From NCBI RefSeq assembly GCF_000027125.1, contig NC_017626.1: 64,000 nucleotides of DNA; one strand, 5' to 3'. The stretch comes from Escherichia coli 042 (GTDB lineage: Bacteria > Pseudomonadota > Gammaproteobacteria > Enterobacterales > Enterobacteriaceae). Positions 60,311-60,625 of the stretch are shown piece by piece. Made by a program: the position numbers and the translations under genes. Every line of letters starts with the position of its first letter. The stretch's first letter is position 1. Below the pieces are notes generated by a model. That model ran no database searches and was not told the origin of the DNA. It was given only the letters and a program-made list of their open reading frames with translations.

Positions 60311-60625
60311 TTACTGGAGTAAGAGTATGGACGGGATTGTTTTCCACCCATGCCCTTTCTGGAATCCCGGTGTCGCCGGAACATTCCCTTCACTGGTAGA
60401 GAAATACGAGCGATCTTTCTGTGCCACCATCGACTTACAGATAAATACGGTAGCTGTTCCGTTCTGCAAATCCCGGGCATACGCCGTGTTGGAATAAGGC
60501 ACAACGACCGGGCCTGTGGGCGGAGGAGGAGGGGACCAGCAGGGATCGGGAAATGCGCCAGCAGATTTCCCGTCAGACGCTCTGGAGCAGGCTTCCCGCC
60601 CGTTGATATAAACGTTAGTTTCCAT
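60311..60625 (-). CDS. PAAR-like (DUF4150-type) domain protein, 104 aa, probably a truncated T6SS effector N-terminus
   Basis: METNVYINGREA...FPDPCWSPPPPPTGPVVVPYSNTA...GTATVFI...KDRSYFSTSEGN matches the PAAR-like pattern I recall (FPDxC, PxPxPY.N, S.F..S.G[DE]); the ORF ends well short of any toxin domain. Confidence 0.5.
   Translation of the reverse strand: METNVYINGREACSRASDGKSAGAFPDPCWSPPPPPTGPVVVPYSNTAYARDLQNGTATVFICKSMVAQKDRSYFSTSEGNVPATPGFQKGHGWKTIPSILLLQ

Follow-up and report, generated by a model that had tools for sequence, protein, structure and literature searches.

The closest described systems are Tse7–Tsi7 from the vgrG1b cluster of Pseudomonas aeruginosa and PefD–PefE of Proteus mirabilis, in which an effector combining a PAAR-like and a Tox-GHH2 domain is paired with an immunity protein of about 320–340 aa. 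The P. mirabilis effector PefD was described as a PAAR-Phasin2-Tox-GHH2 protein and is neutralised by the 320-aa PefE (PMC5714391). Sachar et al. 2025 reported a 'synteny type A' cluster with PIPY effectors, with Tse7 and the P. mirabilis pef operon named as characterised examples (PMC11883445). According to the same work, the PIPY domain (the renamed DUF4150) comprises residues 1–137 (about 137 aa), requires a DUF2169 chaperone for the VgrG spike complex and also occurs in single-domain proteins (PMC11883445). The order of synteny type A is VgrG, DUF6484, DUF2169, thiolase-like, effector, immunity and armadillo/HEAT, and the published ratio of DUF4150 to DUF2169 is usually 1:1.

In the window (the whole analysed stretch of 64,000 nucleotides), a minus-strand ORF of 104 codons was found, with the ATG at 60625 and the TAA at 60311–60313 (ORF listing and sequence). 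In RefSeq it corresponds to WP_001305541.1, labelled 'PAAR-like domain-containing protein'. Very probably, this ORF is non-functional and represents what a deletion left of a Tse7/PefD-type T6SS effector, located in a decayed effector–immunity array.

Domain content of the 104-codon ORF and its relatives

The initial annotation had read PAAR-like DUF4150 motifs on the minus strand of the ORF and had proposed a profile search. The motifs, namely FPDPC, PPPPPTGPVVVPYSN and SYFSTSEGN, are all present in the translation, and the Pfam search gave a significant match to PF13665 (Tox-PAAR-like, DUF4150; E = 7.2e-11, score 42.6) at ORF residues 23–85, which reaches only model positions 4–63 of 108. 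This is the sole Pfam domain of the ORF; Tox-GHH2 (PF15635) is absent from the same polypeptide. [quoted passage not shown] None of the NCBIfam families matched the stump, the GHH2 fragment described below, the immunity paralogues or the complete effector of C. freundii. When the whole orthologous PAAR-like domain was used as a query, the PDB gave no sequence match at E ≤ 1, and AlphaFold2 modelling of this domain from a 20-sequence alignment reached a mean pLDDT of only 31.

Using tblastn, ORF residues 1–91 were found to share 88–90% amino acid identity with four full-length PAAR-like/GHH2 effectors of Citrobacter freundii (E ~1e-35), and with blastn, positions 60353–60625 were 80–81% identical to the first 273 nt of each of the four effector genes. 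In the alignments with relatives of 128–129 aa and 397–547 aa, the ORF departs from them past ..FQKG (codon 91) and continues as HGWKTIPSILLLQ up to its stop. Every relative, short or long, runs on after ..ATxxFxKG with VIKGKAYFxxWSPNVKFEGxxVxRHxDxMxHNHG, and in the alignment of 20 complete domains the stretch missing from the ORF contains 15 invariant columns. Thus, the ORF is without the last ~38–40 residues, or the last third, of the domain, the break being at codon 91 of about 131. Partial Pfam coverage and the loss of homology to all relatives after codon 91 together show that the ORF does not even contain a complete PAAR-like domain. The idea of a PAAR-like domain that stops before any toxin was therefore correct as to the truncation, and has to be amended as to its place, which is inside the domain and not at its end.

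The protein search revealed two classes of relatives, the first consisting of near E. coli and Citrobacter fragments and the second of single-domain PF13665 proteins of 128–129 aa from metagenomes and MAGs, with 55–66% identity. The order of genes around the single-domain relatives is VgrG, DUF6484, DUF2169, a protein of ~350 aa, PAAR-like (128–129 aa), Tox-GHH2 and a protein of 324–347 aa. The ~350-aa protein of the relatives' clusters matches NCBIfam NF004798 (3-oxoacyl-ACP-synthase-like, that is, thiolase-like). In these split relatives, the ORF of the GHH2 toxin (428–434 aa) begins 3–24 nt past the PAAR-like ORF. In two of the split effectors (L004, 4556–6250; L008, 3080–4779), the PAAR-like ORF closes just after ..HNHG, and enterobacteria read through at this point (..HNHGSEPGNT..). 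The expectation that genes with this domain continue into a toxin thus holds for the enterobacterial relatives (506–547 aa), and the versions from metagenomes and MAGs depart from it.

The first protein search, which returned mostly homologues of 128–129 aa, raised the reading that the ORF is a functional stand-alone short PAAR-like (PIPY) protein capping the VgrG spike. Such single-domain proteins exist, also in the literature, and are among the nearest relatives; in addition, the ORF has a start codon and is an annotated CDS. However, the single-domain proteins all keep the C-terminal stretch of ~38 residues, with its 15 invariant positions, that the ORF has lost, and the last 13 residues of the ORF are frameshifted toxin 3' sequence, as described below. 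VgrG and DUF2169 are absent from the window, their absence from the genomes carrying the island being inferred from genome counts, and IS-disrupted and frameshifted alleles are in circulation. This reading was rejected on the basis of alignment, context and deletion mapping, and its probability is very low, in agreement with the initial annotation, which had considered it the less likely one. Homologues of about 100 aa, named there as evidence against a truncation, are found only superficially, as the short homologues carry ~38 C-terminal residues that the ORF lacks.

Intact orthologues in C. freundii and E. coli contain both PF13665 and PF15635 and have the same gene order. In the C. freundii cluster (L012/L013), PAAR, VgrG, DUF6484, DUF2169 and thiolase-like genes come before a tandem series of effector/immunity modules, whose number is three or four according to strain. 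The stretch 5675–19011 of L012 (C. freundii CP040698) contains four full-length effector/immunity modules and one shortened DUF2169 gene, with no VgrG gene in the retrieved stretch, and L013 contains one VgrG and one full DUF2169 gene with three modules. In 13 E. coli genomes, DNA with 71–72% identity encodes the N-terminus of effectors of 397–547 aa. In E. coli A16, the genes tssB, tssC, hcp, vgrG, DUF6484 and DUF2169 precede a 547-aa PAAR-like + GHH2 effector, which is followed by a 342-aa WD40/BNR-like protein.

Position and proposed mechanism of the deletion

The lesion was mapped relative to the gene of the C. freundii effector E1 (526 aa, PAAR-like + Tox-GHH2; locus L012), and both flanks were placed on this intact orthologous gene (Table 1).

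Table 1. Coordinates of the deletion and of the array features in the window; (-), minus strand.
Feature	Position	Strand	Correspondence or basis
Effector remnant, 5'-truncated Tox-GHH2 C-terminus	62897..63252	(-)	Pfam PF15635, E = 3.7e-6, model positions 31-120 of 122
immA1, intact, 346-aa beta-propeller	61831..62871	(-)	blastn, 73% to C. freundii E3 3' end and immunity gene
Second effector remnant	61729..61777	(-)	sequence, C. freundii E4 3' end, repeat D1
immA2, intact, 346-aa beta-propeller, directly upstream of the 104-codon ORF	60679..61719	(-)	blastn to C. freundii immunity genes
104-codon ORF, very probable effector pseudogene remnant	60311..60625	(-)	ORF listing, Pfam, alignments
True N-terminal 91 codons, PAAR-like (DUF4150/PIPY), including the GPVVVPY motif region	60353..60625	(-)	blastn, tblastn
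5' flank of the deletion	60626-60354		L012 7404-7676, 80%; first 273 nt of E1 (blastn)
Deletion junction	60353..60354	(-)	L012 7676 and L012 8926 fall on the same window base, 60354, where the two alignments abut
Tail of the deleted toxin gene (17 codons and the stop) in its original frame: GMGGKQSRPYSYSSKNK	60301..60354	(-)	matched to E1 C-terminus
3' flank of the deletion	60354-59260		L012 8926-10017, 76%; last 60 nt of E1, spacer, immunity gene (blastn)
immB, intact, 336-aa beta-propeller, start 60279 = 31 bp past the ORF stop	59269..60279	(-)	amino acid identity, synteny
Thiolase-like T6SS accessory gene, C-terminal remnant, 103-aa ORF	58865..59176	(-)	tblastn, NCBIfam

About 1,250 bp of the E1 gene, corresponding to codons 92–507, are absent, a size that is approximate, as is the microhomology given below, because the deletion is deduced from an orthologue that is 76–80% identical in DNA. 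As 1,250 is not divisible by 3, the loss is out of frame, and the ORF therefore consists of 91 genuine codons and 13 frameshifted ones. Base 60354 of the window takes the second position of codon 91 in the 5' frame and opens a codon in the toxin frame. Read in the toxin frame, the stretch 60301–60354 gives GMGGKQSRPYSYSSKNK and a stop codon, the C-terminus of C. freundii E1 being GMGGKQSRPFPYKTGKNSK, also followed by a stop; in the remnant ORF, the toxin-tail stretch is read out of frame as HGWKTIPSILLLQ and a stop. The frame of the tail that ends with ..NNVRLKT at a TGA overlapping the immB ATG was considered as the original toxin frame and was discarded, since the C. freundii C-terminus fits the other frame.

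Comparison with full-length homologues, which the initial annotation had recommended, thus located the truncation point at codon 91 of E1 and bears out its view that the effector was truncated by recombination or deletion. The frame indeed ends after 104 codons, with the next paralogue, a 336-aa gene, following 31 bp later. The toxin was removed from the effector as had been proposed, and what is left of it is the coding sequence of its C-terminus, in another frame. The ORF is PAAR-like over 91 codons and not throughout, its last 13 being frameshifted toxin 3' sequence.

At both break points, the C. freundii sequences share at most 2–3 nt (GG/GGC), which makes an illegitimate, microhomology-level deletion the simplest mechanism; this step was inferred. 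The original gene would have encoded a PAAR-like (DUF4150/PIPY) spike tip at the N-terminus, then a linker and, at the C-terminus, an HNH/EndoVII nuclease of the Tox-GHH2 type. An illegitimate deletion of ~1.25 kb within this gene would have fused tip-domain codon 91 with a position 54 nt upstream of the toxin stop codon. The nuclease, the linker and the final third of the tip domain would thereby have been lost and the frame shifted, while the immunity gene was spared. Translation would now run through 13 nonsense codons and end at a stop 31 bp ahead of the retained immB. An intact ancestor of this E. coli allele was not found, since 153 of 153 matches among the complete E. coli genomes were the same deletion allele at ≥99% identity.

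Another origin of the truncation would be homologous or unequal recombination between tandem modules, or Rhs-style C-terminal displacement, instead of a simple intragenic illegitimate deletion. The array is filled with near-identical paralogous sequence, including a 558-bp block with 97.5% identity, and the effector N-termini are all ~80% identical in DNA, so that the N-terminal stump is not assignable to one module. In addition, the island is located at a known Rhs locus with described C-terminal displacement (PMC2935791). Nevertheless, the junction flanks in C. freundii (tip codon 91 and toxin-tail codon 508) share only 2–3 nt, the break is not at a domain boundary, and the toxin whose tail forms the 3' flank is the one syntenic with immB, as an intragenic deletion predicts. 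An origin by recombination is thus considered unlikely. The repeats in the region could also give rise to a sequencing or assembly artefact, with a repeat being collapsed and a false short ORF created, but the same structure occurs in at least 149 independently assembled complete genomes and the junction lies outside the repeat block, and the probability of such an artefact is negligible.

Neighbouring remnants and distribution of the nfrB–cusS island

In minus-strand order, the array comprises three effector genes and three immunity-like genes. The GHH2 remnant, which comes first, matched residues 397–507 of the C. freundii effectors E3/E4 in tblastn in two frames. Its annotated 99-aa ORF ('HNH/endonuclease VII fold toxin-2') occupies 62897–63196. 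The homology to E3/E4 begins ~56 nt upstream of the GTG of this ORF in the other frame, and a frameshift is located in a run of eight G near 63187–63194. The second effector remnant opens with the initial 19 nt of a PAAR-like gene (ATGGAAACTAACGTTTATA; METNVY), which are fused, out of frame, with ~30 nt from the 3' end of a toxin gene (..DSYDDNCDN and a stop); the 3' end of C. freundii E4, used for comparison, is ..DNTENEDN and a stop, TAAGG. The remaining effector remnant is the 104-codon ORF. Downstream of immB, the thiolase-like remnant showed 85% identity to residues 268–336 of the C. freundii thiolase-like protein (tblastn) and matched NF004798 (E = 1.6e-8, profile positions 272–344 of 349). 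Intact clusters have this thiolase-like accessory gene ahead of the PAAR-like effectors.

According to the family alignment, the products of immA1, immA2 and immB fall into the same family as the proteins encoded downstream of GHH2 toxins, and neither Pfam nor NCBIfam contained a family matching these beta-propeller genes. The immB product has 79% amino acid identity to C. freundii P0023, which is encoded right after the 526-aa E1 (L012/L013 synteny). A direct repeat of 558 bp (60607–61164 and 61759–62316; 97.5% identical, 14 mismatches) is shared by immA1 and immA2 and also takes in the spacer and the initial 19 nt of the effector gene. The C-terminal ~165 residues of the immA1 and immA2 products are identical, while their N-terminal halves are only ~50% identical. 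The chimeric structure of immA1/immA2, which is reminiscent of the modular variable regions that have been described in PefE, suggests that gene conversion or duplication took place recently.

The island is AT-rich (GC 0.37–0.45). In CH4796 (L001), it is located between nfrB and cusS, a position listed among the conserved Rhs loci of E. coli (PMC2935791). Remnants of an Rhs element were observed at 55776–56727 on the minus strand, with a YD-repeat fragment at 55776–56045 and a Cys-rich short ORF like a toxin tip at 56527–56727. A SUKH-3 immunity gene, so annotated in L001, lies at 56063–56524 on the minus strand and is part of the Rhs remnants at nfrB–cusS. An ISAs1-family (H-repeat) transposase gene at 56712–58625 is seemingly split by IS1 (insA/insB-like ORFs at 57219–57916); in CH4796 the same ISAs1-family gene (L001, 10290–11426) is contiguous and is annotated as a pseudogene with an internal stop. 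A second ISEc1-type copy, which is intact, was found at 54561–55697.

The distribution of the locus was evaluated in 5,426 complete E. coli genomes. The 3.7 kb around the ORF were found at ≥99% identity in 153 of them, and in 149 at least 80% of the length was covered. The DUF6484–DUF2169–thiolase genes occur in 13 of the 5,426 genomes vs. 153 with the island; for three of these 13, it was confirmed by accession that they are the genomes with full-length, 71–72%-identical effectors. The tblastn search of the 64-kb window with VgrG, Hcp, DUF6484 and DUF2169 revealed no homologue, and that with the four C. freundii effectors revealed only the fragments listed in Table 1 and no complete copy. These genome counts, with three accessions checked, suggest that the island-carrying genomes are without the DUF2169/VgrG loading genes.

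A complete copy elsewhere in the genome, which the initial annotation had recommended looking for, did not emerge in the window, and in none of the E. coli genomes of the set did any match reach 80% coverage of the C. freundii E1 gene. The genomes with any match to E1 have a median of one such place, and the island genomes match only nt 1–272 among the matches listed. With the last third of the domain gone and DUF2169 apparently absent from the carrier genomes, the stump cannot act as a spike tip. The ORF, which keeps its ATG and is annotated in RefSeq, could still give a short polypeptide.

Variants of the stump from other E. coli isolates were found in the protein database. In P0002, the end of an IS1 lies at codon 93, P0003 has a different insertion, P0004 and P0021 are frameshifted and P0008 is truncated to 63 aa; frameshifts restoring the toxin-tail frame are among the variants. 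Such IS insertions and frameshifts fit neutral decay and an ORF that is not under selection. The searched literature contained no description of this particular nfrB–cusS island, which is apparently undescribed.

Candidate immunity genes and comparison with known systems

By position and by analogy with PefE/Tsi7, the beta-propeller genes are probably immunity genes, and immB is presumed to be the cognate immunity gene of the deleted GHH2 toxin. The genes immA1, immA2 and immB may still be expressed and protective. The stump is part of a decayed tandem array in the nfrB–cusS island in which three effectors were each destroyed in a different way and three immunity genes were left open. The three intact ORFs encode proteins of 336–346 aa vs. 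three wrecked effectors, and no full-length effector was found in the search of the E. coli set with the E1 gene. With the effectors destroyed and the three immunity genes open, the locus now works, if at all, as an orphan-immunity array. Orphan immunity genes, known from T6SS and other polymorphic-toxin systems, are those kept without a functional cognate toxin. The loss of toxins with retention of immunity at this locus is ordinary gene decay, a known phenomenon, and involves no new mechanism.

The stump could also have been co-opted as a promoter, a 5' leader or a translational-coupling sequence for the downstream immunity gene, which would be compatible with its being a pseudogene. Both 5' remnants retain the effector start codon and the upstream spacer directly before an intact immunity gene, and all three immunity ORFs are intact while all three toxins are destroyed. 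At the same time, the consensus promoter scan was unconvincing: the promoter/terminator scan of 59000–63700 gave five promoter-like sites vs. 12.7 expected by chance in shuffled sequence and is uninformative on expression. The 19-nt remnant was perhaps kept merely as part of the 558-bp repeat. On balance, co-option seems rather improbable.

A wider and tentative proposal, which we regard as possible though doubtful, is that the nfrB–cusS island is an actively selected, immunity-only defence array against PAAR-like/GHH2 effectors of the Citrobacter or Proteus type, with the 5' stumps kept as expression signals of the immunity genes. If this were true, E. coli without the DUF2169/VgrG machinery would keep three diversified, partly chimeric Tsi7/PefE-like immunity genes for survival.

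Reading the ORF as a deletion remnant has consequences for annotation. More than 150 complete E. coli genomes contain WP_001305541.1, which ought to be regarded as a fragment of a pseudogene and left out of counts of T6SS spike or effector components, and likewise the 99-aa 'HNH/endonuclease VII fold toxin-2' ORF. The locus is a clean case of toxin loss with immunity kept in a PAAR-like/GHH2 effector array. The main practical value lies in this correction and in the three candidate immunity genes, which may be of use in the study of cross-protection against enterobacterial competitors.

A comparison with Tse7/PefD indicated that the N-terminal domain of the stump is of the same family (PF13665) and that the intact orthologues share the gene order, this tie to Tse7, PefD, Tsi7 and PefE resting on shared Pfam domains and synteny. 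Unlike these effectors, the stump keeps only residues 1–91 and has no linker, nuclease or loading genes. As in the Tse7/PefD type, a gene with predicted immunity activity, immB, is located directly downstream. The single-domain (split) DUF4150/PIPY proteins are similar to the stump in their 55–66% identity over residues 1–91 and in the same cluster context; however, they have a complete domain of 128–129 aa followed by a separate GHH2 ORF, whereas the ORF of the window is followed by the immunity gene. With orphan immunity/Rhs loci, the island shares toxin fragments interleaved with immunity genes, a high AT content and the position at the nfrB–cusS Rhs locus. It differs from Rhs/CdiA in that the fragments in the window come from PAAR-like/GHH2 effectors. 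In addition, Rhs/CDI orphans are typically displaced 3' tips without 5' ends, while here internal deletions kept the 5' ends.
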